DNA of 64,000 nucleotides, taken from the NCBI RefSeq assembly GCF_031769215.1, contig NW_026782006.1, positions 908,070 to 972,069 of the forward strand. The letters are read 5' to 3'. Source of the stretch: Ylistrum balloti. Taxonomy: Eukaryota. Below, one piece after another: positions 20,088 through 64,000 of the stretch. Every line of letters begins with the position of its first letter. Within the stretch, counting starts at the first letter, position 1. The notes beneath the pieces are model-generated. The model worked only from the letters and a program-made list of their open reading frames with translations, had not been told where the DNA came from and did not search any database. The translations under genes were made by a program, and so were the position numbers.

Positions 20088-20590
20088 AAGGAGGAATGTG
20101 AGACCCTGGGGTTAAGAAATTCATAATTTTGGTAAAGCCACCTTAAAACCTTTCCATCCATGAAGAGCGTATCTAGGTGTTGAGAAGATGATTTTTGAAA
20201 TTTTAGTAAATTTAGCCCCATCCATCAGCCCCTGGAGGTTAGCCAGGATCAATATGTGCATATCATCAAGCTGTCATCCTTTGAAAATAATTTTAACCAA
20301 GTTTGAAATATTTCCAATGGAAATGAAACAAATTAAGCTCAAAAATGCACTTTACATATACAAACTGTAGCAAGCTTTACTCCTCCATAGGGGAAAATGT
20401 GAGACCCTGGGGAGGGGGTACCAAGGTTACCAATTTTGGTTACCCTAAGACCTATCCATACAGGAAGAGCATTTGATTCTACCATGAGAAGAGAAAGATT
20501 TTTGAAATTTGAGTCAATTGGACCCCTTTTGGACCCACCCCTCAGGCCCCTGCTAACAGGTGACCATATAATTCACTAAATTTTTTCATC
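20088..20590. mobile_element. Two tandem diverged copies (~295 bp) of a SINE-like interspersed element (core ...aatgtgagaccctgggg...), overlapping the PARP4 stop codon and 3-prime UTR
   Basis: Copy a 20088-20382 and copy b 20383-~20590 align along their length at about 70% identity. Confidence 0.6.
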
Positions 20591-20845
20591 ATTGGCCAGG
20601 GCAGGCTTCCGCAAAATTTCACTGAAAACAGTTTGGAGGATTTTAAGATGCAGAATGCCAGATACAAAGCAATGATTGTAATTGGTCAGCATAAAACTCT
20701 GTCTCAGGTGAACTAAAATTCTTACATCTGGTGCGATAACTTCCCACAATTCATCTAGAACAACATGAGGGCCAAGATATGTACAAATTTCAGTATGTTC
20801 CAACATTAGCAGGTCATCAATATCTGGTGAGGTCACCTCTTCATC
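20576..20845 (-). CDS. PARP4: PARP4 terminal exon as modelled DEEVTSPDIDDLL...ILRKPALANDEKI, stop at 20578-20576
   Basis: Acceptor cagtgtttctttcag|; open frame of 89 codons to TAG; an internal GAT|gtaaga at about 20715 could instead be a donor, so the true 3-prime end is uncertain. Confidence 0.5.
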   Translation of the reverse strand, partial: DEEVTSPDIDDLLMLEHTEICTYLGPHVVLDELWEVIAPDVRILVHLRQSFMLTNYNHCFVSGILHLKILQTVFSEILRKPALANDEKI

Positions 20846-23800: not shown

Positions 23801-26800
23801 GATTAATCTTCTTAAAGAGGTCTACTTAAAATTATTTCAAGAAAATTTGCAAATTTAAATTGGTAAGTACAAAATATGGGAGTTAAGAAGATTACATACC
23901 TAACACCAAAGGTAAACACTCGCGTGTGCTGGGAATTCTTGTGTACAGTGTCCATGGTGATGTCCTGATTGTTAATATGCCCATCAGACACAAGGAAAAT
24001 ATTCCGTAATGCACTCTCTGGTTTGAGCAGGTAGAATGAATGTAAAGGTCGGTACAAATCTGTATTTCCCATGTTTGCATCTACAGACTGTAATGATAAA
24101 GGTGACTTTCAACATTAAATAGTCAATTACACTGTTGAGTGATGCTGATTGGATCAGCAAAGAGTGAAACATTTTCCTTATCAATGGCTCTGTAATATCC
24201 CTTATCATCATTAATTACCGCTAAATAACAATTATTTCTAATAAATTCCTGTAATATCCCTTATCATCATTAATTACCGCTAAATAACAATTATTTCTAA
24301 TAAATTCCTGTAATATCCCTTATCATCATTAATTACCGCTAAATAACAATTATTTCTAATAAATTCCTGTAATATCCCTTATCATCATTAATTACCGCTA
24401 AATAACAATTATTTCTAATAAATTCCTGTAATATCCCTTATCATCATTAATTACCGCTAAATAACAATTATTTCTAATAAATTCCTGTAATATCCCTTAT
24501 CATCATTAATTACCGCTAAATAACAATTATTTCTAATAAATTCCTGTAATATCCCTTATCATCATTAATTACCGCTAAATAACAATTATTTCTAATAAAT
24601 TCCAAGAAGATCCCTGTAGCTGTTTCAAAGTAATAGTGATGATGAGAGTGGTTTACAAATGGACAACAACCACTTATGATATGGTGGAGGTACCTCATGT
24701 TACTGACCTGTATTAGAACTTCAGCTGTAGAGACACTGGACTTGTTCTTCGGTTGGCTTGAAGGGAAAAGTTCACGGAAAGCTGATGAAGACAACAGACA
24801 AGTCATAATTTAAAAAATGCTATGTAAATCCAGCAGACACACAAAAACATCCCTATATGAACACAACTAAATTCTCCAGCAACCATTCAATGTCCCAATT
24901 CAAGGAAACCATTACACTTCAGTTTCACTTCAGAGATAACAAAGCTTCTAAAAATTTATATGTGAAAGCTACAATCTGAAGTTTAACCAATGTACTTACC
25001 TGTCCCAAAAATGACAACATTGAATTTCCAGGTTTTAGGCAGGAAGTGGAGGATAAGAAGCAGAATCTTCTTGGCCTCATTCAAACCCTTGTCTGTCATG
25101 GAGTTGGACAAGTCAAGCATGAGGATGACCTCTGACTCATTGTCCTCACAGGCCTCAAACTCGGGGTAAAACGTCAACATACAGGCCTAGGATAAAACAG
25201 TAGAATGTCAACATATAGGGCAAGGATAAACAGTACAATGTCAACACACAGGCCTAGTATAAACAGTTCAATGTCAACATATAGGGCTAGAGTGAACATT
25301 AGAATGTCAACATACAGGCCTAGTATAAACAGTAAAATGTCAACATACAGGGCTAGGATAAACAGTAAAATGTCAACATACAGGCCTAATATAAACAGTA
25401 CAATGTCAACGTACAGGCCTAGTTTAAACAGTAAAATGTCAACATATAGGGCTAGAGTGAACATTAGAATCTAAACATACAGGCCTAGTATAAACAGTAA
25501 AATGTCAACATACAGGGCTAGGATAAACAGTAAAATGTCAACATACAGGCCTAATATAAACAGTACAATGTCAACATACAGGTCTAGTATAAACAGTAGA
25601 ATGTCAATATATAGGTCTTGGGTGAACATTAGAATCTAAACATACAGGTCTAGGGTGAATAATAAAATGTCAACATGTCAACATACAGGTCTAGAGTGAA
25701 CATTACGATGCCAACGTACAGGTCTAGGATAAAACATTAGAATGTCAACATACAGGCCTAGGATAAAACAGTAGAATGTCAACATACAGGCCTAGGATAA
25801 AACAGTACAATGTCAACATACAGGTCTAGGATAAAACAGTACAATGTCAACACACAAGCCTAGTATAAACAGTTCAATGTCAACATACAGGCCTAGGATA
25901 AAACAGTACAATGTCAACATATAGGGCAAGGATAAACAGTACAATGTCAACACACAGGCCTAGTATAAACAGAACAATGTCAACGTACAGGCCTAGGATA
26001 AAACAGTACAATGTCAACATATAGGGCAAGGATAAACAGTACAATGTCAACATACAGGCCTAGGATAAAACAGTACAATGTCAACATACAGGCCTAGGAT
26101 AAAACAGTTGAAAACCAAGCTTGACTGCTGCTTCTCTCCTACCAAATTTCATGTGAACTTCTTACAAATTAAAATGAATTAAAAACTTCTTGAGGAAGAA
26201 GTTGTATTAAGATTCCCATACTGATCTCTCACCTGCTTTGTTGGATCATCTTCACTCTGTTCTACCCACATACGAGGGACATGAGCCTCTGCTAACTCCA
26301 AAAGAAGTTGAAAGCCATCACCAATATTTAGATTTGGTTCCATCACCACAAGGACTGTAGATTGTTCAGGCTACAATATAACCAAGGTACATCTGACTGT
26401 AACATTGACCTGCTTTGCTTTCTCATCATATACAGATTAGTGACAAAAATTTGGAAACGACAGCATTTAAAATATAAATTATGATCAACTAATTCAAGAG
26501 GTCCAATAGGGTCCTTGGTGCAAAAAGGACAGATAAACAAACCGAGGACAGATTGACTCACCACAAAACAGGCAAAGTTAGAACAGTTCTATCCATCACT
26601 GGACAAATAGTCTTCCTGGGGACAATTTGATCTATCACAAAACAGACAGACTGAGGACAGTTTGACCCACCACAGAACTGACAAACTTAGGGCAGCTTGA
26701 GTCACCCAAGGACAGATAGACAGACTGAAGATAGGCTAACCTCTCACTAGAAATACAGACTGAAGAGACTACAAGACACTACAGTACACACAGACACATT

Positions 26801-29800
26801 GAGGACTGCCTGATTTAAGACAGAGAGAGACAAAGAACATTTTGAGCCACAAAAGGACAAACAACAGATGTGCTATAATGATAGGCACTTATACATAACA
26901 ATATTCCAATGTAAAACCGACAACTAAAGTTTACAAAAATAGTGTGCTACATTTGCAATGTAAAATAATTACCCCTAAATAAATACTGTGATGATGAAGC
27001 TATACGATGTTAACATCTATGTCGCAGTGTAAGGCTCACTCAACAGACATAACTGTGATGATGAAGCTATACGATGTTAACATATTATCTATGTCGCAGT
27101 GTAAGGCTCACTCAACAGACATAACTGTGATGATGAAGCTATACGATGTTAACATCTATGTCGCAGTGTAAGGCTCACTCAACAGACATAACTGTGATGA
27201 TGAAGCTATACGATGTTAACATATGATCTATGTCGCAGTGTAAGGCTCACTCAACAGACATAACTGTGATGATGAAGCTATACGATGTTAACATATTATC
27301 TATGTCGCAGTGTAAGGCTCACTCAACAGACATAACTGTGATGATGAAGCTATACGATGTTAACATATTATCTATGTCGCAGTGTAAGGCTCACTCAACA
27401 GACATAACTGTGATGATGAAGCTATACGATGTTAACATATTATCTATGTCGCAGTGTAAGGCTCACTCAACAGACATAACTGTGATGATGAAGCTATACG
27501 ATGTTAACATATTATCTATGTCGCAGTGTAAGGCTCACTCAACAGACATAACTGTGATGATGAAGCTATACGATGTTAACATCTATGTCGCAGTGTAAGG
27601 CTCACTCAACAGACATAACTGTGATGATGAAGCTACTATACGATGTTAACATCTATGTCGCAGTGTAAGGCTCACTCAACAGACATAACTGTGATGATGA
27701 AGCTATACGATGTTAACATATTATCTATGTCGCAATGTAAGGCTCACTCAACAGACATAACTGTGATGATGAAGCTATACGATGTTAACATATTATCTAT
27801 GTCGCAGCGTAAGGCTCACTCAACAGACATAACTGTGATGAAGAAAATGTTACCTTGCCATTCTTTATCTTCTTCACTTGACCTTTATCATCAATGCTCT
27901 ACAAAATAAAATCAACACCCAATTTGATATTTATAGATGTAACACATTGAACATTTCTGCCGTAAGTAGTTGCCTTTTTGTATTATACATTCAGTGCCCT
28001 TACTTACTCACTTTATCACAAAGCTTTCAAAATGGTGTGTTATTGACAGTTCGAAAAAAATAAACTAAAAATGTCCTTTTTTATTACAAAATTACAAATC
28101 AAGTAAATGAGTTGATATTTATTTTTAATATAACTTTGATGTAAAAGTGATTAAAATCAATTTGAAAATTGAAAAAAGAGGTTGCTAACTCAATAATAAA
28201 TGTCTCAGTGCCATGGAGTTGCCGAATGCTTACTTAGTTTGTAAAACAGATATACATTTCAGCATTAAAAAATTGTTTAAAATACTACGTATCATATAAT
28301 GCTTGTTTACTTTGTAAAATAAATACAAATTACAACATGACTGCATAATACCTCTTTAATATGTTCACTAGAGTGATCTGTTTAATGGATTTGAGTGCAG
28401 GATTATGCTAACAGAAACGTAAGGTAATATGCAGGGGTTTATAATTCTATATATAAATAGTCATTAAAGATAGTGTAAATTTAATTACCCAGCAAATGTT
28501 TTCACACTTAATCCAAATGTCCCAAAATTTATGTTACCATGCCTATGTTGGTAACAATGTAGAGACATGCCTGATATTTGATATATGTGAACTTGCCTAA
28601 GCTTGGACATCTGGGAAACATTAGCCCTGCAAAATTATTGTTAAATATAGTTTTCCTCCATTTTGAACAGTTGTTAAATGTTCCACATTAATTAAGTGGT
28701 AAAAAGAAACAATAATATATTTAGTCAACATTTCTCAACCGAAAATCTAAATGTGATTTTCTTCTGACCTTAATCTATGTGGGCACTGAAATCTAACCAG
28801 GTGCACACCCTGACAGGTCTGGTGTGAATATAAAGTAACATGCACAGCTTGTACACAAGAATGACTTTTGACCTTCCACTTTGATTGATGACAACCAAAT
28901 TCTAGTCGGGTATAGATCTTGGTGGGGTTCATGAGGCATCTTGTACACAAACTTTTTACATCAGAAGTAGTCAAGGGTGAACTTTGACCTTTAACCATGA
29001 CCAAAGATCACTGAAAGCTCCAAGGTAAACCCTGGTGGGGTTAAGATATAGTTTGAACATAAAGTAAAATTGTAAGGGGTCATGAGATATATTGTGCACA
29101 GTTTACCATGGACAATTGGACAAATTGCTTACTTTATACACACCCTTCCCTTACTAAAGTGAGTGGTATAATTATTTCTGTCTGTGACTTACTTAAGTGA
29201 TTTGAGAATCAAACTATGAAATACATACCGCAATCATAATTTCATGGGTTGGGCTATGGACACTTCTTATGTCGAAGGGCATGTCCACTGCCACCTCTAC
29301 ACAGCATTCAATGTCCTTGGGGAAGGAAACAAAACCAGTTTTATCAACAGTCAGAAATATACACCAGGGATCCAAACGGGATGTTGGCACCAGTTTACCT
29401 CTATTTGTTCTTCAAAAGTTGGGAATATTTTTTCACTTCTTTTATCCCTGTTTTTGCTCTAAACTGAAGGAAATTTAAAAATTCTTTTGAAGAAATAGTG
29501 ATAACCTTTAACTATCAAATCAATGATGGTTGCTAGCCATTATTGTTTTTCTAATCAGTTTCACAACCAAAAGGCACAACTAGGTTCCAAGAGAAATCTA
29601 CATAATTCTGAAATTTGAGAAAGATCCAGTCCTACTCAAGAAATAACAAAGTTATATTGTCAAAATCAAAGATGGCCACCTGTCAGCCAATTAGATTTTT
29701 TATCTATCCCAAAATACAAAATCAAAATGCACAACTAAGGACCAAAGGGCACCTACATATGAAATTGGAGAAAGATCCATCAAGCACTGTATAGTGATAC

Positions 29801-48498: not shown

Positions 48499-50319
48499 TG
48501 GGGATTTGTAGAAAAAAGTTAAGGGACACACAATGTATGCTATGCCATAAGCCCTTATGGCCCTATTCTGCAGATGCATTCTTTACAAGCATATTTTCAT
48601 GTAATGAAAAAAATGAATGAAAATACCTAGAAAACTTCCAATAATCAATATCTTCAGTCAAAGTTAATGGTATTACATTTCTGTAACATTAATGCAATGT
48701 ATAAAGATTTCAACAACATAATAACTTAGTATGAAGGTTTATTCAACAATTTCAATTCAATAATTTATAATACATAATTCCCTACATACACAATTGTATG
48801 TATGATCATAAAACACTTATAACATTAAACAAGTTGAAAGAAATGATTATTTTCTAGTCCTACTTGCAAAACTACAATATCCTGAAAGTTGTCTCCCTTC
48901 AATTTGTCAAACTTCATCAGTATTTATGAAAACAACTTGGGAATTCTTGTACTTTTGATTTCCATATTTTCTTCAAGCTAAGTAATAAAATAAGGAGAAT
49001 TGCGTGACATTTAGTGTCATCCTTTTCACACATCTAAAAAGCATACTATTGTCAAATCACCACCTCATTAATCATTACATTCCTGACTCTTTTTTCATGT
49101 CACATTCAAAGGAAGCTTGTAATAAAATTAGAAACTTTAGTGGCTTAATAATATGTCATTTCTTATTGAGGATCATCAATTCATCATTTAGTACATTGGT
49201 TCTATTTTTGATCAATACATACTATTTACACAAATCAATCTATAAGTTTCATACATGAAATAAATGTAAGGACTTTCAACAGACGATTAATTTATTTGGC
49301 AGGTGTCTTTATGGCGAGATGTTATTCAACTTCTGAAATTGTTAAAAGTCAAACAAAAGCCTTGATAACATGGATATTTTATTTGTTCTTCAGTGTATAG
49401 AATATGTGTCACATTATAATTAGATAGAACCTACTGCACTTAAATGTAATTGTAATTAAAATTTGATTATTCAAATTCCTATAATTATTTAAAATTTATA
49501 CCAAGATAGAAATGTGACTGCAAAATACACTCAATGACTAATAATGTCACAGTAGAATATGTTAATTCATATCAATGTGTATATGTATATAAATATCGAT
49601 AAAAGATAACAGAAATATCAGTATCAGAGGCCTTGTAACGTCACCACATGATTACCTCCCTTTGACCATTGTACATTGTTAGATTCTAAGTGTGTGAAGA
49701 ACATCAATGAACAACAGTGGTGATATTTAACAATTGTCTTATTCCTATTGCAGATTTTAATGAAATATGGAAAAGTAAAATGTCTCTCTTTCTATAGCCA
49801 TAAACAAAGGTGGGTTTATCCTTCACACAACACCTAACTCTAACTGAAGTCACCACAGATCTGTGGCATAACACCACTCTTTCCTTATTTACTAACAATC
49901 ATGAACTATGTTTACATGACTTATGTTATGGTTACATGTCTTAATAGCTATCACAAATGTTTATACCTGTCCAGTACAATATCCTTATAACATGATTAAC
50001 ACAAAGCGAAAGGTTTAATTAAAAGCTGAGTGCTAGTTTATAGTAAAAGTTCCTATCAGAGTTGTCTCAACTACTTCCTCTCAACTCTGAGCATCACAAT
50101 CCCTTCTGTTTATACATCTGTACTAGAGTTTAGACAATTATGTCCTGCCTTTTCTACATGGTACAAAATGTTTTAATGTTTCACAGCAACAGTAGGGTAG
50201 CAATCATCTTTCTCATCTGATCAAGGTGAAGTTATTCTCTTACAGTTTAAACTTTTTTCTATTCCAAGGCATACGTTAAAGAAGTGAAGTTTCTGCATCA
50301 CAATGAGCTAGATGATTGA

Positions 50320-50358
50320 TCAATTCCGTAACTTTGCAAGTCTCTGCGTTAACTCATC
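50320..50358 (-). CDS. CHMP1: CHMP1 terminal exon DELTQRLAKLRN*
   Basis: Acceptor ctttttcttcag|; matches CHMP1B C-terminus DELSQRLARLRDQV. Confidence 0.8.
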   Translation of the reverse strand, partial: DELTQRLAKLRN

Positions 50359-53300: not shown

Positions 53301-54623
53301 TTCTTCCTTATCACATTTGTTAGCAAAACGCAGCAGTGACCTAGCACTATATTTCAAATTGAAGAGTTGTCCTGCAGTGTGTTAAGGTTTAGATCTGTGT
53401 GCTAAGTGTGTTATACAAAAGCTTAGGTATAGGTCAAAGATTATGTCAGTTATAGAAAAGTAATGCATACAGATATATCCTAAAGAATTAGAAACATGTA
53501 TGAATTATGCTCCGATGACTAGGCTTATCAGCAAAATGAAATAACAAGGTTAAGTTTGTGATTCCTTGTGTATAATTGAGATTATGTAAAATTTGGTTGC
53601 AAATTGTTTTATCTAATATCCATTATAAATCCCATCATTCACTTCATAGGGCAGTCATTATAAAACAACTGAACTGCCAGAAAATTTACTAGCAATACCT
53701 CACACAACAATTACCTTGGAGGATCAGAACTGTGTTTATGATAGTAATAAGTAATCAAATGCTGCTACAGCCTTACATCATTGCTGTAGAGATGAAATGG
53801 TACATATAATTGTGTTTATACAGATTGTGTTAAGTACCTCTATTTTAAATACATAATCGCCATTTGGCACATCAGTAACATTTGTCCTTTACATGTTACA
53901 GTAAAAACGGTTTAGATCAAATTCTATCATACTGATCAGTTATAGTTTTTCTTAATTATACTTTAAGATGTCAGTAACCAGTAAGTTCTAGGCTTCTCTT
54001 GACCGAGCCTAAAGTTAAGATTCTTGTAAGCTCTAAGTTTACCTTGACCAAGCCCAAGATCATGATTCCAAATTTCTTAGTTTCCCTTGACTAGGCCTAC
54101 AGTTAATATTCTAGTCAGTTCCAAGTTTCTCTTGACAAGGCAAAAGGTGAAGATTCTAGTAAGATTGAAGTATACCTAGACCAGACCTAAGGTTAAGGAG
54201 AATCAACAAGAATTACAAGTTTGTTTTTACAACTCATTTCCTATTGTCAATGTCATTCTATGCTTGTATAATATAAGATATGTGTAATAGAATAAGTGCA
54301 TTACAATAAGTGCTATACGATGTAATATTTTATATTGGTAATATCTTAAACATATAATTGTTTCAAGTTATATGTGGTACACTAGTCAATACTTACCTTA
54401 TAATTACATACATATGTAACTAATTATTTGTAAAATACTTACCTTATAATTACTGGTAATCAATGCATAAATTTCTGAGTTATACTTACTTACAAGCTCA
54501 TTAAAAGGTATATGAGCAACGTTACCTTTTTTAATTTGGTTTTTTCTTCTTTTTCTGACTTTTCACTTCGTTTTGCATTGCGTTCCAAGTCCTTTGCAGC
54601 AAATTTGAGATTAAAGAGATGTT
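50320..54623 (-). CDS. CHMP1: CHMP1 (charged multivesicular body protein 1, ESCRT-III; CHMP1B-like) gene, exons 2-7 modelled, exon 1 not found
   Basis: Exons translate to HLFNLKFAAK...AIQKGNLEGARIHAENSIRQKNQALN..RMSARIDAVAARVQTAVTM...VTGSMAGVVKSM...ISQLMDRFEQQFENLDVQ...DELTQRLAKLRN*, collinear with human CHMP1B; canonical splice sites and phases. Confidence 0.85.
50878..50978. repeat. CHMP1: ~47-bp unit x3: tandem triplication of the CHMP1 exon-6 tail plus its GTAAGT/GTAGGT donor
   Basis: Minus-strand reading: ...GTGAACAG|gtaggtttctgtattaagtggtgacagcatcagctgttagtattggacag|gtaagtttttgtgttaagtggtgacagcatcagctgttagtattggacag|gtaagtttctgggtt. Confidence 0.85.
50971..51052 (-). CDS. CHMP1: CHMP1 exon 6 (G)LELNMDLPSAQSTLPSGVASSTASSEQ
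   Basis: Acceptor gtgttacag|, donor CAG|gtaggt; this donor is tandemly triplicated downstream. Confidence 0.8.
51421..51572 (-). CDS. CHMP1: CHMP1 exon 5 ISQLMDRFEQQFENLDVQSQVMEDTMNASSTLNTPQTQVEGLMQEVADEA(G)
   Basis: Acceptor cctttttacag|, donor GG|gtatgt. Confidence 0.85.
51917..51985 (-). CDS. CHMP1: CHMP1 exon 4 VTGSMAGVVKSMESAMKSMNLEK
   Basis: Acceptor ctatgatcggcag|, donor AAG|gtaaat. Confidence 0.85.
52470..52616 (-). CDS. CHMP1: CHMP1 exon 3 AIQKGNLEGARIHAENSIRQKNQALNYRRMSARIDAVAARVQTAVTMKQ
   Basis: Acceptor cttgttacag|, donor CAG|gtacat; near-identical to CHMP1B. Confidence 0.9.
53274..53371 (-). CDS. CHMP1: CHMP1 exon 2, copy A (paralogous alternative): QLFNLKYSARSLLRFANKCDKEERSEKRKLKK
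   Basis: Acceptor cactgcag|, donor AAG|gtgagt; identical 98-bp length and phase to copy B, 1.25 kb downstream. Confidence 0.65.
54526..54623 (-). CDS. CHMP1: CHMP1 exon 2, copy B: (K)HLFNLKFAAKDLERNAKRSEKSEKEEKTKLKK
   Basis: Acceptor agtctag|, donor AAG|gtaacg; 98 bp with 2+32 codons; closest match to CHMP1B EKHLFNLKFAAKELSRSAKKCDKEEKAEKAKIKK. Confidence 0.7.
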
Positions 54624-55798
54624 CTAGACTGTTAAGGTATATCAGTCAAAGCATGCAATAGGTATATATATCAATATACATAAAAACACAGTCATATATA
54701 TAAAAAACTATACACAATTAAGATTAAGGACGCTTAATATACAGCTATATATATCTTATTGGAAAGGTATGATATACTTTTATGATGATAAACATATAAA
54801 CTTAGAATAAATTCATAATTCCAGAGACATATATAACGTGTTACATACGTCTATGACAATTCCAATATGCAGATTTTTGTTGAATATTGTTAAAAAACCT
54901 ATAACATGCTAATAATCATAATGATGACATCTTATAGCATCTAACAATCTTTTTGATGGAGGATATGTATAACGTATACAGATAACACAGGACCACAAAC
55001 TTATAATTATAGACATACACATTTAAGTCTATGATACATATAGGACATGTCTATGCATCTATACAGTTAATTCTATCCCGAACCTGGTAAGAGTGATAAA
55101 CCCCGTCACAATTTTGTAACATGAATCTGGATTCAGTTTAATCATATATACATGAACAAACTAAAATTAAAGCACTCGCTTTGCTGAAAACAAATTTTGT
55201 ATCTGTATATCTATATTTAAGTTCAGAGCTAACAGTACTTTATAGTAAATATCACAATCAACATCACTTATTTATTTTACAACATGAGGGTTTATGACAT
55301 GGGCCATATTCACTACCTTGAATGGCACTTCAGTAGAAATCCCCTAAATGGTACAATGTTTAAGAATCCTAATATTTCCAATAAACAATTCCATGTGTAA
55401 TCAGGAAATCGTGACTTCCAATGTTTACATTTTCTGCTTCCATCAAGCAAACAGATCTTGAGAATCAACATCTCACCCATTTTTAAGCATCAGAATGTTT
55501 TCATTAATAGTTTAAAGGATACTGTCCATCGACATCTTTCGTTTCTGTTTTCCTCAGATTAAGTTTCCCTGTGTTTGTGTTTAAGATCTGTCTGCAAGAG
55601 TTGTGATTGAGAAATGACTACTTCCCTTGTGATGTTTAATGGAAAATGAGCTCATTGTAAAACGTCATCGGTATTTGTGTATTATTTGGATATCGGAACA
55701 CCTTTGAATCGATCCTTTACTTGAGTGCATGTTGCATTGGGTAATGTAAAAATACGAGGACTTCCGACTTGGAGAAGAGCACATGGGTTTCAGTAAAC
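54624..55798. promoter_or_regulatory. Putative shared divergent promoter region between CHMP1 (minus) and URB1 (plus); the unidentified CHMP1 exon 1 should lie here
   Basis: Head-to-head gene orientation; URB1 ATG at 55799; CHMP1 exon 2 needs an upstream exon that supplies the ATG and one phase base. Confidence 0.3.
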
Positions 55799-55955
55799 AT
55801 GACGGAGGATAATAATACACCGTTAAAGAGGAAAAAGAAGAAGTCTGCGGAAGAAAAACAAGATGCTGAGTCACCAAATAAAAAGAAAAGGACAGAAGAT
55901 TTTACAGAGATCACATTTAAATACCTTCTGAGAGATCCATCGACAGCTTTTTCAG
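55799..55955 (+). CDS. URB1: URB1 exon 1 MTEDNNTPLKRKKKKSAEEKQDAESPNKKKRTEDFTEITFKYLLRDPSTAFS
   Basis: First ATG of the open frame; donor CAG|gttcgg; Lys-rich N-terminus then FK..L.DP as in human. Confidence 0.7.
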
Positions 55956-58900
55956 GTTCGGTTCTGCAGTCGGCCGATTTATTTTGCATCAACTTAAAAA
56001 AAACTACCGGTACTAGCAGATTCGCAGGCCTGAAAATTCTAATGTCACTTGTTCCGACCAGAAGTTTGAATATTGTAGTGACAAACAGTTTTGGCACTTG
56101 CAGTTTTATTACAGTATTAATCGGTTGATATGTTTGTGCAATGTGAGATCGAAGAAATTCTTCAATGTTACCGTGTCTAAGAAAAAGGCTATTTATGGTC
56201 ATGCATTCACACGAATAACAGACTTAAATATGTCCAAGTTCGTTCTCACACACATCATGACTGCTGACATTTTTATACATTGTCAACGATTGTAATGGAA
56301 CATATATAGTATGTCGTTTTCTGTTCGATGACAACCAATCACTTTCAAACTCCCCAGGGTGCAAAGTTTTGTATGTCTGAACAGCTTTTTGTCATAATAA
56401 GAAATCTCAAATTGGTTTACAGATAAGATTCAGATTGCGTCTTGAAACTTTGTTGGCTCTCTGGCTACATCATGAAATAGGTTTTTTAAAGAGTTATTGC
56501 CCTTTCTCTTTTTCAGCATTAAGAATTTTTTTGGCACTATCTTCCTCAGTTTACAACTATTTTCTATTAAACTTTGTAGGCATTATAAGTATGATAAATG
56601 GGCATGTTTTCCTCTGTAATATTGAGAAACCTGTAATGAGATTTAATATTTTTTCAAGTTTTCGCTTCTTCTTTCAGCATTACAGTATTGTCCCGAATTA
56701 TTCTCTCAAATTTCAACTTTTCTCTGTAATACTTGGTATGCTTTACCATCAGAACATCAATATCCATTTTGATTTATTTCATGATATGGCCAATTTCCTA
56801 AATTTGTCCTTTACTCTTTCAATTTTCATCCCAACTAACAAATTTTCTTCCAAAAATGAGATAAAAGGCTTTTTCCCCAAAAACTCAGAGGGAAAAAACT
56901 TTCAATTTCATTGCTGTTGGGAAGTCATGAATGTTGTCTAGTATAGGGAGAAAATGACAAATGTATTGGTGTATTTCAGTAAATTTTGTGATAATTCAAA
57001 TACTGATTGTTAAGTTTTTTGATCACATGTTTACTGTGATAAAATTACCCATATCTAATATTTTGCTTATAATCAACATTTAAACACTGGACATAGTTTG
57101 GAACTGTGAGTTAATATGATGTTTGATTGTTACAATAGTCCACTTCAGATAGCCTGTATTGTATCAGGCATTGAATCATGTGCTTGTCTGATTACAACAA
57201 TTTAAAAAAAAAGATTTTCAATAAAGTATTTAAGGAAGCACACAAGTTAAACTATGTAAATCAGGGGTAGCCATTTAATGGCATTTTAGATGTAAATATA
57301 AAGAAAGTAACATTTAAACAAGTCATAGCTCACATCCTATCTGGATTCTGGTCTTATCAGTATTAAAAGTTTTTGTATCTTATTTCAGCTTTTGAACAAT
57401 TTTCTGAGACTGCACGTCAGTGGTCAGAGGAGCATGGATATGATATCATTGCTGGATACTGTCGATCTTCAGCAGAATGCAGTGAAATATTTAAAGTACT
57501 TGAAGCAGGGAAAAGAAAACCAGGAGAGGTAATCTCAGTCTTTATGATGAAAATACATCACTCCATCTTAAGTATGTTCATTTCTTATATATTTATTTAT
57601 TCATGCTGGTTAATGAGTCCTTGCTGACATAGACATTACAAAATCCTAATATAATGTTAAGTGAATCATACAGTAGACTTTCTTAGTAAAAGAATGATGG
57701 GAGAATTGTAGACCTAGCCTAAACTGAGCATGTCACAGCCAGAGGACTGGTTAAGGACAGAGTGGAAGAGGAAGGGGATCCTACACTGAGTAAATTTCTG
57801 TATGTTGGTAGTATATTGGGAGGCAGTCAGAATTACTTAATAAATAATCCTTATTGCTAACTTAACCCTGACCTCTGGGCTGGTGTTATCATGCCTGCTC
57901 TTTTTTGAAAAACCACAGAGGGATCTTTGTCACGAGAGTTGGATATTTTTTTATTCGGGCCATCATTCCGCGGACTTTGGGTTAGTGGTTAGATGTTAGT
58001 AAGGTGCTGGTAGGGTGATCTGCCCCTAAACATACTATTTACTTTAGTAATGTCTATACTTTCTGTAAATCCATATGCGATAAACATTCATAGAAAAAAA
58101 ATGTAGAAGTAATTCATACAGTAGACATGTACAGGTAAAAGTGAGTCATACAGTAGATATGTACAGGTAAAAGTGAGTCATACAGTAGATATGTACAGGT
58201 AAAGTAAGTCATACAGTAGATATGTACAGGTAAAAGTGAGTCATATCGTAGACATATACAGGTAAAGTTAGTCATACAGTAGACATGTACAGGTAAAAGT
58301 AATTCATACAGTAGACATGTACAGGTAAAGTTAGTCATACAGTAGACATGTACAGGTAAAAGTGAGTCATACAGTAGACATGTACAGGTAAGATTGAGTC
58401 ATACAGTAGACATGTACAGGTAAAAGTGAGTCATACAGTAGACATGTACAGGTAAAAGTGAGTCATACAGTAGACATGTACAGGTAAAAATGTGTCATAC
58501 AGTAGACATGTACAGGTAAAAGTGAGTCATATCATAGTCATATACAGGTAAAGTTAGTCATACAGTAGACATGTACAGGTAAAAGTGAGTCATACAGTAG
58601 ACATGTACAGGTAAGATTGAGTCATACAGTAGACATGTACAGGTTAAAGTGAGTCATACAGTAGACATGTACAGGTAAAAGTGAGTCATACAGTAGACAT
58701 GTACAGGTAAAAATGTGTCATACAGTAGACATGTACAGGTAAAAGTGAGTCATATCGTAGACATATACAGGTAAAGTTAGTCATACAGTAGACATGTACA
58801 GGTAAAAGTGAGTCATACAGTAGACATGTACAGGTAAAAGTGAGTCATACAGTAGACATGTACAGGTAAAAGTGAGTCATACAGTAGACATGTACAGGTA

Positions 58901-61900
58901 AAAGTGAGTCATACAGTAGACATGTACAGGTAAAAATGTGTCATACAGTAGACATGTACAGGTAAAAGTGAGTCATATCGTAGACATGTACAGGTAAAAG
59001 TGAGTCATACAGTAGACATGTACAGGTAAGATTGAGTCATACAGTAGACATATACAGGTAAAAGTGAGTCATACAGTAGACATGTACAGGTAAAAATGTG
59101 TCATACAGTAGACATGAACTGGTAAAAGTGAGTCATACAGTAGACATGTACAGGTAAAAGTGAGTCATACAGTAGACTTTCAACGAAAAGGAAAAAAAAA
59201 TCAGTTATGAGAAGAAGATTGTGATTAAATAATGATATAACTGTTTTATTACTATAGTCAAACTTCATTAATTCAAATGCATATTCATCCTAAGTTTGTC
59301 ATTTGACCAGTTGGCAGCTATTTTCGGTGTGTTGGAGGCTATATTACTAAGGATTGCAGATGACCTTGAGAAGTTTACCATGGTTGGCCAGAACATCGTT
59401 CAAAGACTGTTATCTTCACAAATGGCTACAGTATACTTTACCCTGCTGGTGACTAACAAGTCTGGTCACATCAAGGTTACCCTCAAGCTTCTGACAGCTA
59501 TGGTGATGTTGGGAGACCGGTCAGCCCGGATGGTTCTTGCTCAGTTTGATTTCAACAATCCAGTCCTACCACCATTATTGAATCGCAGAGACAAAAAGGT
59601 AGGATAATGCAAAAAAAATTCATGTGTAATCCTTTTGGTAAAGAATGTTGAGTGAAAAAAAATTATCATCTGTGTTCATTGGGCGAATTATTGAACTGTT
59701 GGTGATTGAAATAAAATTGATCAAATTTTTATATGATCATGAAAAATTTTTAGGGGTTGTATTATGTTCTGATGTTGTCCATCTGTCTATCCATCTGTCT
59801 GTCCATCTTTTTGTCCATCTGTTTGTCCATTTGTAAACTTGTGCTTTTCCTGAGATCTCCTCCCACAGTTTTTACACATAATGTTTCAAACGTTACAGAC
59901 AGACATGAAGTTGTGCCTCTCTGAACAGCATTTTGATTTGATGTTTTAAAAAGAGTTACTGCCCTTTTTTTCGATCATCTTTATTTTCTCTTGAGACCTC
60001 TTTATAAGGTGGCATTTTGACTTAACAAGTTTTTGAAAATCATTGCCCTTTATTCTCTCATTTTTCAGCTACTTTCTTTTAAGCTTGGTAGACTTAATTT
60101 TACTGACATGACATTGTGCTTTCTCAAGAGCATTTTGATTAAACTGTTAACTGATTGTCATATTTCAATGCATAATAGTATCTCTCTTTTACATGGGACA
60201 GGCTTATATTGTTCTGCCCTGCAGTATTCTTGTTTTGTATAGCTCTTTGGCCAAGTTATTGAAATACTCAGTCATGGTTGTACCCTGTTGTGTTCCAGGA
60301 TCCTAAAGATGTACGTACATGCTTGATTCACTTTATGATGTCTTTTCTGATCACTGGGAGTGATGATGTTGTCAAACAACTAATGGAACAAAGAGGTAGG
60401 ATTTAGATGTGTTTCAAAATTGGGAAATGAGAAAAATGTCATCATAACCATCAATAGAAATTTGTTAGCAATAATTATTTACATATTGATCAAAAGGATT
60501 TTGTCTAGTCCACATTTGTTAAGACCCTGGATCCTTTTACCATTTTTGAAGGAAGGTGTATTGGAAGAACGGCACGCTCCTATCTTCCTGTAATAAGTAA
60601 TTGTGTTGCGCTACATTTTCATTTTATACAAAGTTTTGATGGAAACTTAGTACCCATAAACCTGATATAGTTGTGTACCTGTGTGCTCCGTAGTGTAACA
60701 GGGTTTGCAGGTTTACTTTGATCTTATAAGCTTTGCTGATAAAAAGTATGTTTTCAACATAATTTTTGTCCATTTATACGTTCCACATGCTGCATGAACC
60801 TAGGGTAAAATTGTAATAAATGATAAATTTTCATATCATTTAGACAAGCTTCATGTTTGATTTCAGGTTTCCTTGGTAGCTTGATACCTGGGCTCCAATC
60901 TGATAGTGTGGGTAACATACAGATGGTAATGTCTACATTACTTCACAAGGTAAAGATAATGTAAACTGAAACTAAAGGATGTTGGATTTGATATCATCTG
61001 CTAGAGATATTTCCAAATTTATATATAAACATACCATTAAAATGTGGCTTATGCATTGGACTAATATGTATGTTGACATACCCATTCTGTGTGGCAGATA
61101 CATTGGACTAATATGTATGTTGACATTCTCATTCTGTGTGGCAGATACATTGGACTAATATGTATGTTGGCACACTCATTCTGTGTGGCAGATACAATGG
61201 ACTAATATGTATTTTGACATTCTCATTCTGTGTGGCAGATACATTGGACTAATATGTATGTTGACATACCCATTCTGTGTGGCAGATACATTGGACTAAT
61301 ATGTATTTTGACATTCTCATTCTGTGTGGTAGATACATTGTACTAACATGTATGTTGACATACTCATTCTGTGTTGTAGATACATTGGACTAATATGAAT
61401 GTTGACACACTCATTCTGTGTCTTAGATACATTGGACTAACATGTACGTTGACATACTCATTCTGTGTGGCAGATACATTGGACTAATATGTATGTTGAC
61501 ATACTCATTCTGTGTTTGAAATATGATTCTGTTCACATGACAGTATTTTTTTGTTATTTTTGACATACCTAAGTTGAGATTTTCTGAGATTGAAATGATA
61601 CACATAAACCCAATCTCACATACTAGTGATGTTAACAACAAGCTTTATATATATGTTCAGTGTTAAAAGAAGATTTAAGATATGCCAGGTTCCCCATATC
61701 ACATTGTATTAGCTTGTTTAGGTTTTGTCAATATACAGTCACTGTTCTTATATTCAGGTTGTCCAGAATCCTGCAGTTAGTAAGACATTAAAGGTGCGAC
61801 TGTTTACCGAGTCCAACATGAGACTTTTGGGTCAGATGTACCACTGGACTGGTCCTAGCACCTGGCAGAACCGGCCAGCAGAGGATCAGATAGAGGTTAG

Positions 61901-63507
61901 TAAAAATCTTCACCATTCTGAGAAACTTCGCATAAAAGTTTCATTATTATAAGATTAGTTTGTCTTTATGTGATCATATGAAATCCTTAAATTGCAGCGA
62001 TAGTTTAGAAATTTAAGTTTTAATGAAAATATATCATACCCTTTACATGGTATTAAATTATGATATATAAACATTTAATATACCAGTAGAATGATTCCCC
62101 AACATGAAGGCATCGGAGGTTGAAGTCTCAAATCTTAACATGACTTTCAGTCAATTTCAATTTCCAGGTAACAACAAAAATTTAAGGTGTAGTGTAGTTG
62201 GTATTTTTTATTTGAGATATAACAAAGCATTGCCATACAGTTAAAAGAGTGGATATTCTTGTATGGGGTGGGAGAAGTATATGAATAGATTTAAACATTT
62301 TCTCCACTAACTTGATGGTAATAACCTTTAGCAGTTATGTAATATGTATAGCTTTTTCCAGGCATAGCATTTTTTTGCGGTTCAATGAAATGTTGGCATT
62401 TATATTATCACACATCAATAAAGAGTGCATTCTGTTTACAAAGCTAAAGGAAACTTATCTCACAGGTGGGTGATGCCAATCAAACTGAGGACCAGAAAAC
62501 CGTGTCAGAGGCTACACACCAGCTCTTGGTAGAGTTGTGTTCCTCTCACAGATATGGAATCAACTTCTACGACAAATCACTGGGCACTACTGGACAGTAA
62601 GAAATATTCTGTAACTTCAGTATCAAGGAAATTAGAGCTGGACAGGTGTTACTCTGGAAACACTACCAATACCTTACTAATATAGGATTTGAACATCTAA
62701 AATTGAATTCTAACTCTGAGTGGGATTTGAGTATCAGACTAGTGTAGAAAGTAATATTTCATAAAGTACTTTCGCTTTTCTTATTGGTTTCACTGTGAAA
62801 GTGTTTGTGTAAGCAACATGAATAGAACACTAGGTTACATTGTATTACAAAGATTCTGTAAAATCCTCGAGGGGAAAATCAAGATGTTTGTTCACAGAAA
62901 AAATATTGGAAACTAAAGTCAAGGGCATGAAAAACAGTAGTAATACACTTCTAAACTTTGATTTTTTTTCCCCAGAAATCAAAACCACATTTTGACCAGT
63001 TTCTTGACATCACTGACCAAAGTAACAGAATCACCACTGATCCAGGAATTGGTTATAAAGACACTTCGGGCATGCCCAGACCAGCTGTGTCATTTCCTGC
63101 CCTCCATGTTAAACATCCTGTCACCACGACCTTCTCCTAAGTGGCGGGCTTCAATGGCGTTTCTCTGCAAGGTCATGATCAGACAGTTCTGTATCAAAGC
63201 TTAATCTAACACAAGATTAATCATTACCATAGTGATAGCTGAAATGGGAATGTATTTTTTATGAAATTCATTATCAGAAAAATGATTACAAAATTTAGGT
63301 TGATTTTTATTTCACTGCAGAAAAAGTCAATATAGCAGACAAGGTAATATTAAATATTTGCTTCTTCAGATTTTTGAAAAACAGTCAGACCTACCAGCTG
63401 TGTTCAAGATCAAGGAAAGAGTGAATGCCCATAAATTTGTGGATATGTTGATGGTGGACACCTTACCTCCACAGGAGATGTTATACACTGTACTGCAGGC
63501 TCTCAAG
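55799..63507 (+). CDS. URB1: URB1/NPA1 (nucleolar pre-ribosomal-associated protein 1) N-terminal part, exons 1-9; gene continues beyond the window
   Basis: Spliced exons collinear with the human URB1 N-terminus (…FKAQLKDP…, EDVYDVVEGYIKISVECVEIFQLL, IFQVFEAILLRTASDL...LSLMTAMV, HGINFYDASLGTFG, LVVNILKVCPDLL). Confidence 0.8.
56355..56950. mobile_element. Cluster of interspersed-repeat modules (…tctgaacagc[at]ttttg… / …aaagagtta[tc]tgccctttctctttttcagc…), URB1 intron 1
   Basis: Shares ~40-60-bp blocks with 59885-60245 (URB1 intron 3); probable MITE/SINE-like family. Confidence 0.45.
57389..57528 (+). CDS. URB1: URB1 exon 2 AFEQFSETARQWSEEHGYDIIAGYCRSSAECSEIFKVLEAGKRKPGE
   Basis: Acceptor tatcttatttcag|, donor GAG|gtaatc; phase 1 in. 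Confidence 0.8.
58109..59180. repeat. 32-bp minisatellite (acaggtaaaagtgagtcatacagtagacatgt), about 33 copies, URB1 intron 2
   Basis: Tandem periodicity; each unit contains CAGGTAAAAG and AAAAGTGAGT (strong 5-prime splice-site consensus). Confidence 0.95.
59311..59598 (+). CDS. URB1: URB1 exon 3 LAAIFGVLEAILLRIADDLEKFTMVGQNIVQRLLSSQMATVYFTLLVTNKSGHIKVTLKLLTAMVMLGDRSARMVLAQFDFNNPVLPPLLNRRDKK
   Basis: Acceptor tcatttgaccag|, donor AAG|gtagga; strongest URB1 match. Confidence 0.85.
59769..59830. repeat. 12-bp tandem repeat (gtccatctgtct) x5
   Basis: Direct tandem copies. Confidence 0.85.
59885..60245. mobile_element. Second copy cluster of the same interspersed repeat, URB1 intron 3
   Basis: Motifs tctgaacagcattttgat, aaaagagttactgccctttttt and attgccctttattctctcatttttcagc shared with 56355-56950. 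Confidence 0.45.
60299..60395 (+). CDS. URB1: URB1 exon 4 DPKDVRTCLIHFMMSFLITGSDDVVKQLMEQR
   Basis: Acceptor ccctgttgtgttccag|, donor G|gtagga. Confidence 0.8.
60867..60949 (+). CDS. URB1: URB1 exon 5 GFLGSLIPGLQSDSVGNIQMVMSTLLHK
   Basis: Acceptor tcatgtttgatttcag|, donor AAG|gtaaag. Confidence 0.75.
61052..61515. repeat. 47-bp minisatellite (cattggactaatatgtatgttgacata[cc]tcattctgtgtggcagata), about 10 copies, URB1 intron 5
   Basis: Tandem periodicity. Confidence 0.95.
61758..61895 (+). CDS. URB1: URB1 exon 6 VVQNPAVSKTLKVRLFTESNMRLLGQMYHWTGPSTWQNRPAEDQIE
   Basis: Acceptor ttcttatattcag|, donor GAG|gttagt. Confidence 0.8.
62466..62596 (+). CDS. URB1: URB1 exon 7 VGDANQTEDQKTVSEATHQLLVELCSSHRYGINFYDKSLGTTG
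   Basis: Acceptor aaacttatctcacag|, donor CA|gtaaga. Confidence 0.8.
62976..63171 (+). CDS. URB1: URB1 exon 8 QNQNHILTSFLTSLTKVTESPLIQELVIKTLRACPDQLCHFLPSMLNILSPRPSPKWRASMAFLCK
   Basis: Acceptor tttgattttttttccccag|, donor AAG|gtcatg (weak); phase 2 in matches exon 7. Confidence 0.75.
63370..63507 (+). CDS. URB1: URB1 exon 9 IFEKQSDLPAVFKIKERVNAHKFVDMLMVDTLPPQEMLYTVLQALK
   Basis: Acceptor tatttgcttcttcag|, donor AAG|gtcagg, which is also the first base of a 75-bp minisatellite. Confidence 0.75.
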
Positions 63508-64000
63508 GTCAGGGTCACATACATCACTCAGAGTCTTGGTCACTAAAATCATACAAGGTCAGGGTCACATACATCGCTCAGAGTCTTGGTCACTAAAATC
63601 ACTCAGGGTTAGGGTCACTCAAATCATTCAAGGTCAGGGTCACATACATCACTCAGAGTCTTGGTCACTAAAATCACTCAGGGTTAGGTCACTCACATCA
63701 TTCAGTGTCAGGGTCACATACATCACTCAGAGTTTGTGCCACTAAAATCACTCAGGGTTAGGGTCACTCACATCATTCAGTGTCGGGGTCACATACATCA
63801 CTCCGAGTTTGTGCCACTAAAATCACTCAGAGTTAGGGTCACTCACATCATTCAGTGTCAGGGTAACATACATCACTCAGAGTTTGTGCCACTAAAATCA
63901 CTCAGGGTTAGGGTCACTCACATCATTCAGTGTCGGGGTCACATCAATCTGAAGGTCAGTGTCACACATCACTCATTAGGTCACTGACACTCATCTTTTC
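63508..64000. repeat. 75-bp minisatellite built of three ~25-bp subrepeats (g[gt]tca[gc]ggtcac[at][tcn]a[ac]atca[ct]tca), 6.5+ copies, starting with the URB1 exon-9 donor GTCAGG; truncated at window end
   Basis: ORF period of 25 aa; units 2 onward recreate CAAG|GTCAGGGTCAC. Confidence 0.9.

Follow-up and report, generated by a model that had tools for sequence, protein, structure and literature searches.

Minisatellites in three genes of a saucer scallop

The DNA analyzed here (the window, 64,000 nucleotides) comes from the saucer scallop Ylistrum balloti, and three of its genes, PARP4, CHMP1, and URB1, carry arrays of minisatellites. The PARP4 exon list reproduces RefSeq XP_060065436.1 exactly when spliced and translated, the spliced CHMP1 model is identical to RefSeq XP_060065416.1, and the URB1 model is open across 456 amino acids. 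The exon boundaries at the junction arrays of PARP4 and CHMP1 were checked against the RefSeq proteins, and the VIT and VWA exon junctions are consistent with alignments of homologues from other phyla. Tandem arrays were identified with TRF and the copies of the junction arrays were read in register. Overall, minisatellites occupy about one quarter of a 45-kb genic stretch in which five arrays span or abut an exon–intron junction, three of them in a single gene (PARP4). A TRF search at a lower score (30) added short, microsatellite-like repeats and no new junction case.

One exon of a preliminary description of this DNA is unsupported. This PARP4 “exon 17” is a 45-nt open reading frame (27854-27898) flanked by AG and GTAACAT that is absent from XP_060065436.1, and the corresponding 15-residue insert is missing in 11 out of 11 aligned PARP4 homologues. 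The 72-nt array that had been assigned to the donor of this exon lies deep within the intron between coding exons 16 and 17, and the GTTAACAT echo of the donor that had been reported in its unit does not rise above shuffled controls (P = 0.66). Separately, a missing exon between PARP4 coding exons 15 and 16 was considered and rejected: the upstream open reading frame extension TVDKTGFVSFPK resembles the Pomacea sequence, no canonical splice pair fits it, and the RefSeq PARP4 model leaves it unused as well.

Arrays at and near exon–intron junctions

The five junction arrays are composed of head-to-tail minisatellite units within a gene (51 nt x17, 33 nt x28, 50 nt x2.9, 25/75 nt x17, and 33 nt x14.8). 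They are listed here with the exons from which three of them derive; “mirage” is the term used for such structures in amphioxus (discussed below).

39213-40079, minus strand: PARP4 donor mirage, 51 nt x17, 97% identity
40191-40063, minus strand: PARP4 coding exon 9, source of the 51-nt unit
25166-26108, minus strand: PARP4 acceptor mirage, 33/34 nt x28, 82% identity
25186-25000, minus strand: PARP4 coding exon 18, source of the 33/34-nt acceptor unit
50849-50993, minus strand: CHMP1 donor mirage, 50 nt x2.9
51052-50971, minus strand: CHMP1 exon 6, source of the 50-nt unit
63508-63942, plus strand: URB1 intron 9 array, 25 nt with a 75-nt higher order
18983-19474, minus strand: array at the donor of PARP4 coding exon 27, 33 nt x14.8, 96% identity

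The unit of the PARP4 donor mirage consists of GTTGGGATTTTGTCTAG, the last 17 nt of coding exon 9, followed by GTAAGC and 28 nt of intron. The array contains 17 identical TAG/GTAAGC sites and displays a 153-nt higher-order pattern, and read-through meets an in-frame TAA directly after the donor. The unit of the acceptor mirage, located at coding exon 18 (counted as exon 19 in the preliminary description), begins with CTGTTT(T)ATCCTAG and continues with GCCTGTATGTTGAC, i.e., it combines a pyrimidine tract, TAG, and the first ~20 nt of the exon. The AG is retained in 25 out of 28 copies, the conserved ACMLTFYPEF frame comes from the last copy only, and all upstream copies lead to a premature stop or a frameshift. 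The CHMP1 unit joins the last 23 nt of exon 6 to a donor (GTAGGT or GTAAGT) and a further 27 intronic nt. GTAGGT is found at the authentic donor in the first copy; the stronger GTAAGT occurs in copies 2 and 3, and splicing at either of these would shift the frame. The URB1 array begins at intron position +1, directly after exon 9 (63370-63507, last base 63507), and contains AAG/GTCAGG three times with degenerate copies deeper in the array. Among the five arrays that had been described as incorporating a junction, four are real (PARP4 exon 9, the PARP4 acceptor, CHMP1 exon 6, and URB1 exon 9) and the 72-nt array is not.

The array at 18983-19474 falls outside the range covered by the preliminary description and is not mentioned there. 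It starts from the donor of PARP4 exon 27 (19518-19474), the penultimate coding exon, each of its units carries AATG/GTGTGAGT, and it is open in frame with exon 27.

The exonic part of the unit measures 17, ~20, and 23 nt in three of the arrays, while the URB1 exon 9 and PARP4 exon 27 arrays start on the donor, where the exon-like part of the unit is marginal and no longer than ~6 nt (0–6 nt). The exonic parts encode residues that are kept across phyla (e.g., FVGILSR and ACMLTFYPEF). As the units hold conserved coding sequence of the host gene, they were copied from the exon and did not arrive by transposon insertion; a transposon-borne satellite near the exon was rejected on this ground. The arrays are of local origin and represent an exon end together with its splice site, repeated in tandem. 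In the PARP4 acceptor and CHMP1 arrays, specific bases distinguish the copy next to the exon from the internal ones. With splice-site use read from the annotation, splicing at the exon-proximal sites yields exactly the RefSeq proteins, and the pseudo-sites would give premature stops or frameshifts.

Further arrays lie beside or away from junctions:

40558-41941, minus strand: PARP4 intron 8, 43 nt x32, starting 25 nt past the exon 8 donor (last exon base 41967)
30136-33331, minus strand: PARP4 intron 15, 47 nt x68, starting 19 nt past the exon 15 donor (last exon base 33351)
37528-38531, minus strand: upstream of PARP4 exon 11, 31 nt x32, ending 50 nt before the acceptor (first exon base 37477)
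26985-27845, minus strand: between PARP4 coding exons 16 and 17, 72 nt x12, deep-intronic
58103-59177, plus strand: URB1 intron 2, 32 nt x34, 574 nt from the donor and 133 nt from the acceptor
24190-24603, minus strand: 59 nt x7, 100% identity, in a 620-nt intron ~100 nt from both junctions
35039-35759, minus strand: 38 nt x19, 206 nt from the closest junction
61043-61515, plus strand: 47 nt x10, 93 nt from the URB1 exon 5 donor

The arrays next to the exon 15 and exon 8 donors are indeed close to them, at 19 and 25 nt instead of the 27–30 nt given previously. The 43-, 47-, and 31-nt units contain no junction sequence, and the flanks of the 47-, 43-, 31-, 72-, and 59-nt arrays aligned to their units with no similarity above shuffled controls (P = 0.28 and 1.0 for the 43- and 47-nt arrays). 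A donor scoring matrix derived from the 39 donors of the window was used to scan the arrays within the range of the preliminary description, and the donor copies of the array at 18983-19474 were read directly. Strong sense-strand donors were found in the four donor-anchored arrays within that range and in the URB1 intron 2 array; the other scanned arrays contained none. The URB1 intron 2 array contains 31 strong donor-like CAG/GTAAA(A/G) motifs, and a search for an exon beside it found none.

Array placement, other scallops, and possible origins

The placement of the arrays was compared with a null model of random seeding in which each array was collapsed to one unit. The collapsed introns contain 85 junctions in 22.8 kb of intron, i.e., one junction per ~270 nt. 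In the window, 5 out of 17 arrays span or abut a junction compared with 2.0–2.5 expected (P = 0.04–0.08); a first pass within the range of the preliminary description gave 4 compared with 1.8–2.3 expected (P = 0.10–0.19). Pooling four scallop loci gave 8 out of 29 arrays compared with 3.4 expected (P ~ 0.02), a value that depends on limiting the units to 10–100 nt, and 7 compared with 4.7 expected for all periods (P = 0.18). The three scallop loci that had not been chosen by the preliminary description contributed 3 out of 12 arrays compared with 1.0 expected (P = 0.07), and the PARP4 loci of three non-scallop molluscs contained 0 out of 33 compared with 1.3 expected. A 157-nt satellite of Argopecten, present twice in opposite orientation, was omitted from the minisatellite test. 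The claim that the placement is more than chance is thereby reduced to a borderline and weakly supported observation: the arrays lie close to splice sites about twice as often as under random placement in these short introns.

The recurrent theme itself is real and also appears in the orthologous loci of three other scallop genera. A junction array is found at the URB1 exon 4 donor of Argopecten (60 nt, at least 75 copies), at the Pecten PARP4 exon that is orthologous to 43009-42875 of the window (86 nt x2.1), and at the URB1 exon 3 donor of Mizuhopecten (48 nt x2). The URB1 exon 9 donor of Pecten maximus carries a 27-nt array that is homologous to the array in the window, and this array is common to Ylistrum and Pecten. 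Overall, the orthologous introns of Argopecten, Pecten, and Mizuhopecten contain different arrays at different junctions, i.e., the arrays are lineage-specific. At the URB1 exon 4 donor, a 60-nt array spans the junction in Argopecten and a 60-nt array lies 12 nt away in Mizuhopecten, with no significant similarity between the two units (P = 0.24). That unrelated arrays struck the same donor in two genera hints at a junction-proximal hotspot. The presence of junction arrays in a mollusc, and repeatedly in four scallop genera, shows that mirages are not peculiar to amphioxus.

These arrays are probably mirage-type minisatellites that arose from local duplications straddling a junction, with the clustering resulting mostly from a high minisatellite rate combined with short introns. 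We infer that a local tandem duplication would by chance straddle an exon–intron boundary and that the unit would then be amplified by replication slippage or unequal exchange, leaving the exon end and the splice signal repeated inside the intron. The scallop genome would make minisatellites at a very high rate and its introns would have been short before the arrays grew (about one junction per 270 nt), so that a sizeable share of random 25–70-nt duplications would touch or adjoin a junction, and duplications that are wholly exonic would be removed by selection. From the annotation, we further infer that the spliceosome would select the site that directly borders the real exon, i.e., the first donor or the last acceptor; splicing at a pseudo-site would nearly always introduce a premature stop or frameshift, making the transcript susceptible to nonsense-mediated decay. 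The junction lies at different places in the units (0–6, 17, ~20, or 23 nt of exon), which fits random straddling, and the 97–100% unit identity and higher-order periodicity of some arrays point to recent amplification. A junction-specific mechanism, such as the junction-associated slippage or duplication put forward in the preliminary description, is conceivable but not needed for the pattern.

Against this explanation stand the pooled count for 10–100-nt units (8 compared with 3.4, P ~ 0.02), the count in the three other scallop loci (3 out of 12 compared with 1.0, P = 0.07), the unrelated arrays at the URB1 exon 4 donor, and the three further window arrays that lie 19–50 nt from junctions. 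It is possible, although doubtful, that minisatellite birth in scallops is biased to junctions, with duplications or first expansions that favour splice sites through slippage (microhomology) of the splice consensus against cryptic copies close by or through transcription- or splicing-associated fragility at exon ends. The ~2.3–3-fold excess in the scallop loci (5 compared with 2.0–2.5, 8 compared with 3.4, and 3 compared with 1.0), the unrelated arrays at the URB1 exon 4 donor, and the two arrays that begin exactly at intron +1 or on the donor agree with such a bias, and the lack of a signal in the three non-scallop PARP4 loci fits a lineage-specific process. However, the significance is borderline and rests on filters that were chosen after the data were seen (P = 0.18 for all periods), the window was selected because it was striking, and introns may have been shorter when the arrays were born, which raises the expected count. 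Furthermore, 12 out of 17 arrays in the window are not at junctions, the arrays 19–50 nt away share no sequence with them, the junction position in the units is variable, and donors and acceptors are both involved so that no single splice motif can be the nucleus. Equally tentative is the wider proposal that a pectinid process may seed or expand minisatellites preferentially at junctions, at least two-fold genome-wide, and strike the same junctions independently in different genera, as at the URB1 exon 4 donor of Argopecten and Mizuhopecten; if true, pectinid genomes would offer a natural library of genes with tens of identical competing donors or acceptors.

Selection for the splice-site arrays, with additional U1 or U2AF sites that reinforce exon definition or guard long introns from premature cleavage and polyadenylation, is improbable. 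The donor-bearing arrays do contain 15–31 strong sense donor motifs and zero antisense motifs, but this strand bias follows automatically for a unit derived from a real junction. The array at URB1 exon 9 has persisted since the common ancestor of Ylistrum and Pecten, yet arrays in general are gained and lost from genus to genus. A strong donor motif is absent from the largest arrays (47 nt x68, 43 nt x32, 31 nt x32, and 72 nt x12), indicating that donor content is not needed for growth, and no such benefit has been proposed for acceptor pseudo-sites. The least probable explanation, a very unlikely one, is an artefact of misassembled repeats or of exon models placed on repeat copies. Assemblers can produce or resize arrays with 100% identity (the 59 nt x7 array and the Mizuhopecten 48 nt x2 array), and one previously described exon is unsupported. 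However, the translated exon models match two RefSeq proteins exactly, all four independent assemblies, each from a different genus, contain junction-spanning arrays, and the base differences between exon-proximal and internal copies are unlike a collapse artefact; copy numbers are perhaps inexact, but the arrays certainly exist.

Consequences and comparison with known repeats

The 15–28 identical intact splice sites beside an essential exon represent natural experiments on splice-site choice. They are also annotation traps, as gene predictors and readers may place exons on repeat copies or invent micro-exons nearby. A literature search brought up no mirage-like repeats from scallops or any other bivalves; papers on Daphnia tandem repeats and on earthworm were not relevant.

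Mirages were originally described by Canestro et al. 2002 (as cited in PMC3087553, PMC3902484). Such structures occur in amphioxus Adh3, globin, TnC, and PGBD5 and in human F7, IFI6, CBS, LMNB2, and PDGFA, with either normal splicing or use of the most proximal sites only (PMC3087553, PMC3902484, PMC1557585). Like the amphioxus mirages, the scallop arrays have units of tens of nt to about 160 nt that contain an exon end and a splice signal, affect both 5′ and 3′ boundaries, are internally homogenised, and differ between haplotypes or species (in the scallops, between genera). The exon-adjacent copy is the one in use in amphioxus and, judging from the annotation, would be so in the scallop as well. 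The scallop arrays differ in their host, a bivalve mollusc instead of a cephalochordate, in their higher copy numbers (15–28, and at least 75 in Argopecten), and in their density (three in one gene, five in 45 kb). Furthermore, the amphioxus Adh3 case is defined by somatic and allelic instability, whereas the scallop arrays were read from one haplotype, in which the higher-order periodicity and 97–100% unit identity, together with the turnover between genera, are indirect signs of length instability.

Among human minisatellites, the first unit lies across a donor in the 37-bp VNTR of F7 IVS7, IFI6 (6-16) intron 2, CBS IVS13, LMNB2, and PDGFA, where the authentic donor is followed by identical pseudo-donors, and in F7 the most upstream donor alone is used even when downstream donors are strengthened (PMC1557585). 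CHMP1 matches F7 in that the annotated donor is the first GTAGGT although copies 2 and 3 are GTAAGT, and the donor arrays fit the “first site wins” scanning model from F7. The human cases are isolated loci and affect donors only, whereas the scallop also contains a 28-copy acceptor array in which, judging from the annotation, the last copy must be chosen, an arrangement for which 5′-to-3′ donor scanning offers no explanation.

Mirages have been suggested as a source from which new introns and exons could form. In the Rogers model, introns are gained by tandem duplication across AG/GT proto-splice sites (discussed in PMC3087553). The scallop arrays resemble this model in that tandem duplication makes functional-looking splice sites that could serve as raw material for new exons or introns, and the array at 18983-19474 could become exon sequence by such a route. 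They differ in that the scallop introns are old and no new intron or exon was seen to have formed. Zhuo et al. in 2007 reportedly described human introns that arose from tandem arrays. Overall, the repeats in the scallop genes are of a kind that is already known from the amphioxus mirages and human F7 IVS7 and is newly seen in a mollusc.

Gene content and exon models

The window is eukaryotic, with a G+C content of ~35%, and rich in minisatellites. Homology searches identified three genes in the flagged region (20576-64000): PARP4 (-), CHMP1 (-) and URB1/NPA1 (+). Exon models were anchored by tblastn, refined by GT-AG sites and reading frame, and later compared with the public annotation. After splicing, the CHMP1 model equals XP_060065416.1 (Ylistrum balloti) exactly, and the top match for a PARP4 exon was XP_060065436.1 (P0213, Ylistrum balloti), from which four small corrections were taken (an extra exon 43987-43853, the acceptor 40191, a GC donor after 29232 and the junction 21499/21296); three terminal exons were added as well. 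On translation, the resulting 28-exon list yields precisely the 1243 residues of RefSeq XP_060065436.1, and the URB1 model is open across 456 residues. The window is accordingly from Y. balloti, and the junctions treated here are those of the public annotation. When PARP4 was the query, a word-indexed protein search gave gastropod proteins (~50% identity) as top matches and no scallop proteins, and missed the identical XP_060065436.1, although it was in the collection.

Several features of the gene models were observed in passing (slashes within motifs mark splice sites). The end of PARP4 coding exon 16 (29226-29235, -) is placed in RefSeq at ATT/GCGGTATG, a GC donor, with a canonical GT donor (GCG/GTATGT) 3 nt downstream whose use would add one alanine; the two may be tandem alternative donors. 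The RefSeq Y. balloti PARP4 has 1243 aa and, in its terminal part (18540-20845), its last two exons are tiny and lie between arrays, while 2115 aa are encoded by the Pecten maximus gene as called (locus L002, 23182-28100). Either the Ylistrum model lacks ~870 C-terminal residues or the gene has been truncated in this species, and further exons could be hidden in the array-filled 1-18.5 kb. The second coding exon of CHMP1 occurs in two alternative copies (54526-54623 and 53274-53372, -), both encoding ...LFNLK(F/Y)...KLKK and both in frame with the exon at 52616 when spliced to it. The upstream copy is the one in RefSeq, and tblastn found the other copy in Argopecten (L001 14004-14117), Pecten (L002 13510-13605) and Mizuhopecten (L003 14317-14412), which suggests a conserved pair of putatively mutually exclusive exons. 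CHMP1 and URB1 have a head-to-head arrangement (55523-55799), their start codons at 55535 (-) and 55799 (+) being separated by 263 nt; this order is kept in Argopecten at ~69% DNA identity, and the intergenic stretch looks like a bidirectional promoter.

Tandem arrays on and off splice sites

When the copies were read in register, five arrays in the window proved to be anchored on a splice site:

39213-40079, -, PARP4 exon 9 donor array, 51 nt x17
25166-26108, -, PARP4 coding exon 18 acceptor array, 33/34 nt x28
50849-50993, -, CHMP1 exon 6 donor array, 50 nt x2.9
63508-63942, +, URB1 exon 9 donor array, 25 nt with a 75-nt higher order
18983-19474, -, PARP4 coding exon 27 donor array, 33 nt x14.8, outside the flagged region

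Every unit at PARP4 exon 9 reads GTTGGGATTTTGTCTAG/GTAAGC followed by 28 nt; it comprises the final 17 nt of coding exon 9 (...VGILSR), the donor and the intron start, and read-through meets TAA directly. The CHMP1 unit joins the final 23 nt of exon 6 to a donor and 27 intronic nt; GTAGGT is the annotated first donor, and the stronger GTAAGT stands in copies 2 and 3. The URB1 array runs from the first base of the intron after exon 9 and repeats AAG/GTCAGG. At the acceptor, every unit contains CTGTTT(T)ATCCTAG/GCCTGTATGTTGAC..., the acceptor plus the initial ~20 nt of coding exon 18, whose start encodes ACMLTFYPEF, a sequence conserved from corals to mammals. [quoted passage not shown] The fifth array starts from the coding exon 27 donor (exon 19518-19474) and carries AATG/GTGTGAGT in each unit. 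Its 33-nt unit is divisible by three and open in frame with the exon, stop-free for at least 110 codons (VSLYH(H/R)NIYNG repeats), so that splicing at a downstream pseudo-donor could lengthen the protein by 11-residue repeats instead of truncating it.

The preliminary description had named five junction-incorporating arrays as a recurrent theme. The theme largely holds: four of the five were recovered and the exon 27 array adds a further case. The remaining one, the donor of a PARP4 'exon 17', was rejected. This 'exon' is a 45-nt ORF (27854-27898, -) between an AG and GTAACAT, lacking from RefSeq, where ...HEIMI is joined straight to PEQST..., and its 15-residue insert is absent from all 11 aligned PARP4 homologues; the GTTAACAT 'echo' in the neighboring 72-mer is no better than shuffled controls. 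The ORF has a good acceptor (TTTTATTTTGTAG), the GTAACAT donor and a phase that fits the flanking exons, and may be a cassette exon missing from the annotation, or a chance occurrence. Two arrays described as ending close to the donors of exons 8 and 15 do lie close, starting 25 and 19 nt past them (40558-41941 and 30136-33331), and a third (37528-38531) ends 50 nt upstream of an acceptor; in none of the three is the sequence between array and junction significantly similar to the unit.

According to a donor scoring matrix, strong sense-strand donor motifs are restricted to two groups, the four donor-anchored arrays in the flagged region and one deep-intronic array; the donor copies of 18983-19474 were instead read directly.

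58103-59177, +, deep-intronic array in URB1 intron 2, 32 nt x34

This array holds 31 strong donor-like motifs CAG/GTAAA(A/G), in the form ACAG/GTAAAAGTGAGT, on the sense strand and 0 on the antisense strand. A search for an exon next to it found none, and it might represent a displaced or relic junction array, recursive-splice-like sites, or chance.

Repeats also fill 1-18.5 kb. A 77/154-nt satellite occupies 1-1555 and runs past the window start. A recent tandem triplication (2537-16810, unit ~5.1 kb) follows. Each copy has 27-mer and 51/41-mer arrays, ~1 kb of unique sequence and a 28-mer array; the three unique stretches share 99.2-99.4% identity, and no convincing exons were seen in them. 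A 74 nt x19.5 array (17076-18515) starts ~25 nt past the PARP4 stop codon (18540-18542) and therefore lies in, or just past, the 3' UTR.

Junction arrays in other scallops

The orthologous CHMP1-URB1(-PARP4) loci of Argopecten irradians (L001), Pecten maximus (L002) and Mizuhopecten yessoensis (L003) were compared with the window. Exons show 76-88% DNA identity and introns are unalignable. Junction arrays are also present in these three scallops, mostly at different junctions:

Argopecten (L001), URB1 exon 4 donor array, 60-nt unit AACAAAGAG/GTCATA..., at least 75 copies
Pecten (L002), PARP4, 86-nt duplication containing the donor and 49 nt of the ortholog of the window exon 43009-42875
Pecten (L002), URB1 exon 9 donor array, 27-mer, downstream of the donor
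Mizuhopecten (L003), perfect 48-nt duplication of the URB1 exon 3 end plus GTAGGG
Mizuhopecten (L003), URB1 exon 4 array, 60 nt x39, 12 nt past the donor

The Pecten 27-mer is clearly homologous to the URB1 exon 9 unit of the window (P below 0.0004), and this array is therefore older than the genus split. The exon 4 60-nt units of Mizuhopecten and Argopecten show no significant similarity (P 0.24). Satellites of ~155-157 nt were also observed in the Argopecten URB1 and CHMP1 introns in opposite orientations (L001 7185-7946 and 14773-15556), with an array of like size in the orthologous Pecten CHMP1 intron (L002 14669-15867) and a (CGTC)n microsatellite ahead of the CHMP1-intron satellite in both species; they resemble a dispersed satellite carried by a transposon, of another kind than the locally derived minisatellites.

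Chance placement, origin and known precedents

Arrays lengthen introns, and their nearness to exons therefore looks surprising. For the chance test each array was collapsed to one unit (45.5 kb to 33.7 kb, leaving 85 junctions in 22.8 kb of intron) and units were placed randomly, placements being rejected if wholly exonic or if a whole exon would be duplicated. Three PARP4 loci of other molluscs served as the non-scallop contrast.

Arrays spanning or abutting a junction, observed versus expected
Window, flagged region, first pass: 16 arrays; 4 versus 1.8-2.3; P 0.10-0.19
Window, final models: 17 arrays; 5 versus 2.0-2.5; P 0.04-0.08
Four scallop loci, all periods: 33 arrays; 7 versus 4.7; P 0.18
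Four scallop loci, units 10-100 nt: 29 arrays; 8 versus 3.4-3.5; P ~0.02
Three other scallops only: 12 arrays; 3 versus 1.0; P 0.07
Three non-scallop molluscs: 33 arrays; 0 versus 1.3; P 1.0
All seven loci: 62 arrays; 8 versus 4.7; P 0.09

With the final models, 7 arrays of the window lie within 30 nt of a junction (3.5-4.2 expected, P 0.04-0.10). The scallop excess is about two- to three-fold, in the same direction throughout, and borderline, because the filters were picked after the data had been seen, the window itself was chosen for its striking look, the exon models of the comparison loci are approximate, and introns may have been even shorter at array birth, which raises the expectation. 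The proposal that placement exceeds chance is weakly supported.

The arrays are of local origin, because conserved coding sequence of the host gene is part of their units. The high identity among units and the higher-order periodicity indicate recent amplification, and the differences between genera show rapid turnover, with one array having persisted. In the simplest account, tandem duplication and expansion of an ordinary kind took place in a highly minisatellite-prone genome with short ancestral introns: selection would purge arrays falling within exons, the splicing machinery would pass over repeated sites, and nonsense-mediated decay presumably removes mis-spliced transcripts. A modest mutational bias towards junctions is possible, for which the URB1 exon 4 donor, hit twice (Argopecten and Mizuhopecten), and the replicated two-fold excess in scallops are the best support, but the borderline excess, the post hoc filters and the choice of a striking window speak against it. 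Of all the features, the acceptor array (25166-26108) is explained least well, since splicing has to select the final one of 25 intact acceptors.

Comparable elements have been described elsewhere. In amphioxus, mirages repeat an exon end and its splice signal in tandem inside an intron. Adh3, globins, troponin C and PGBD5 carry such arrays, whose length is unstable, and splicing is normal (PMC3087553, PMC3902484). In human F7 intron 7, a 37-bp VNTR opens with the final 4 nt of exon 7 and the upstream-most donor is always used, even with strengthened downstream copies; comparable human arrays occur in IFI6, CBS, LMNB2 and PDGFA (PMC1557585). A literature search found no report of mirage-like arrays in bivalves. 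Elements of this kind were known before; what is new here is the phylum and the unusual density.
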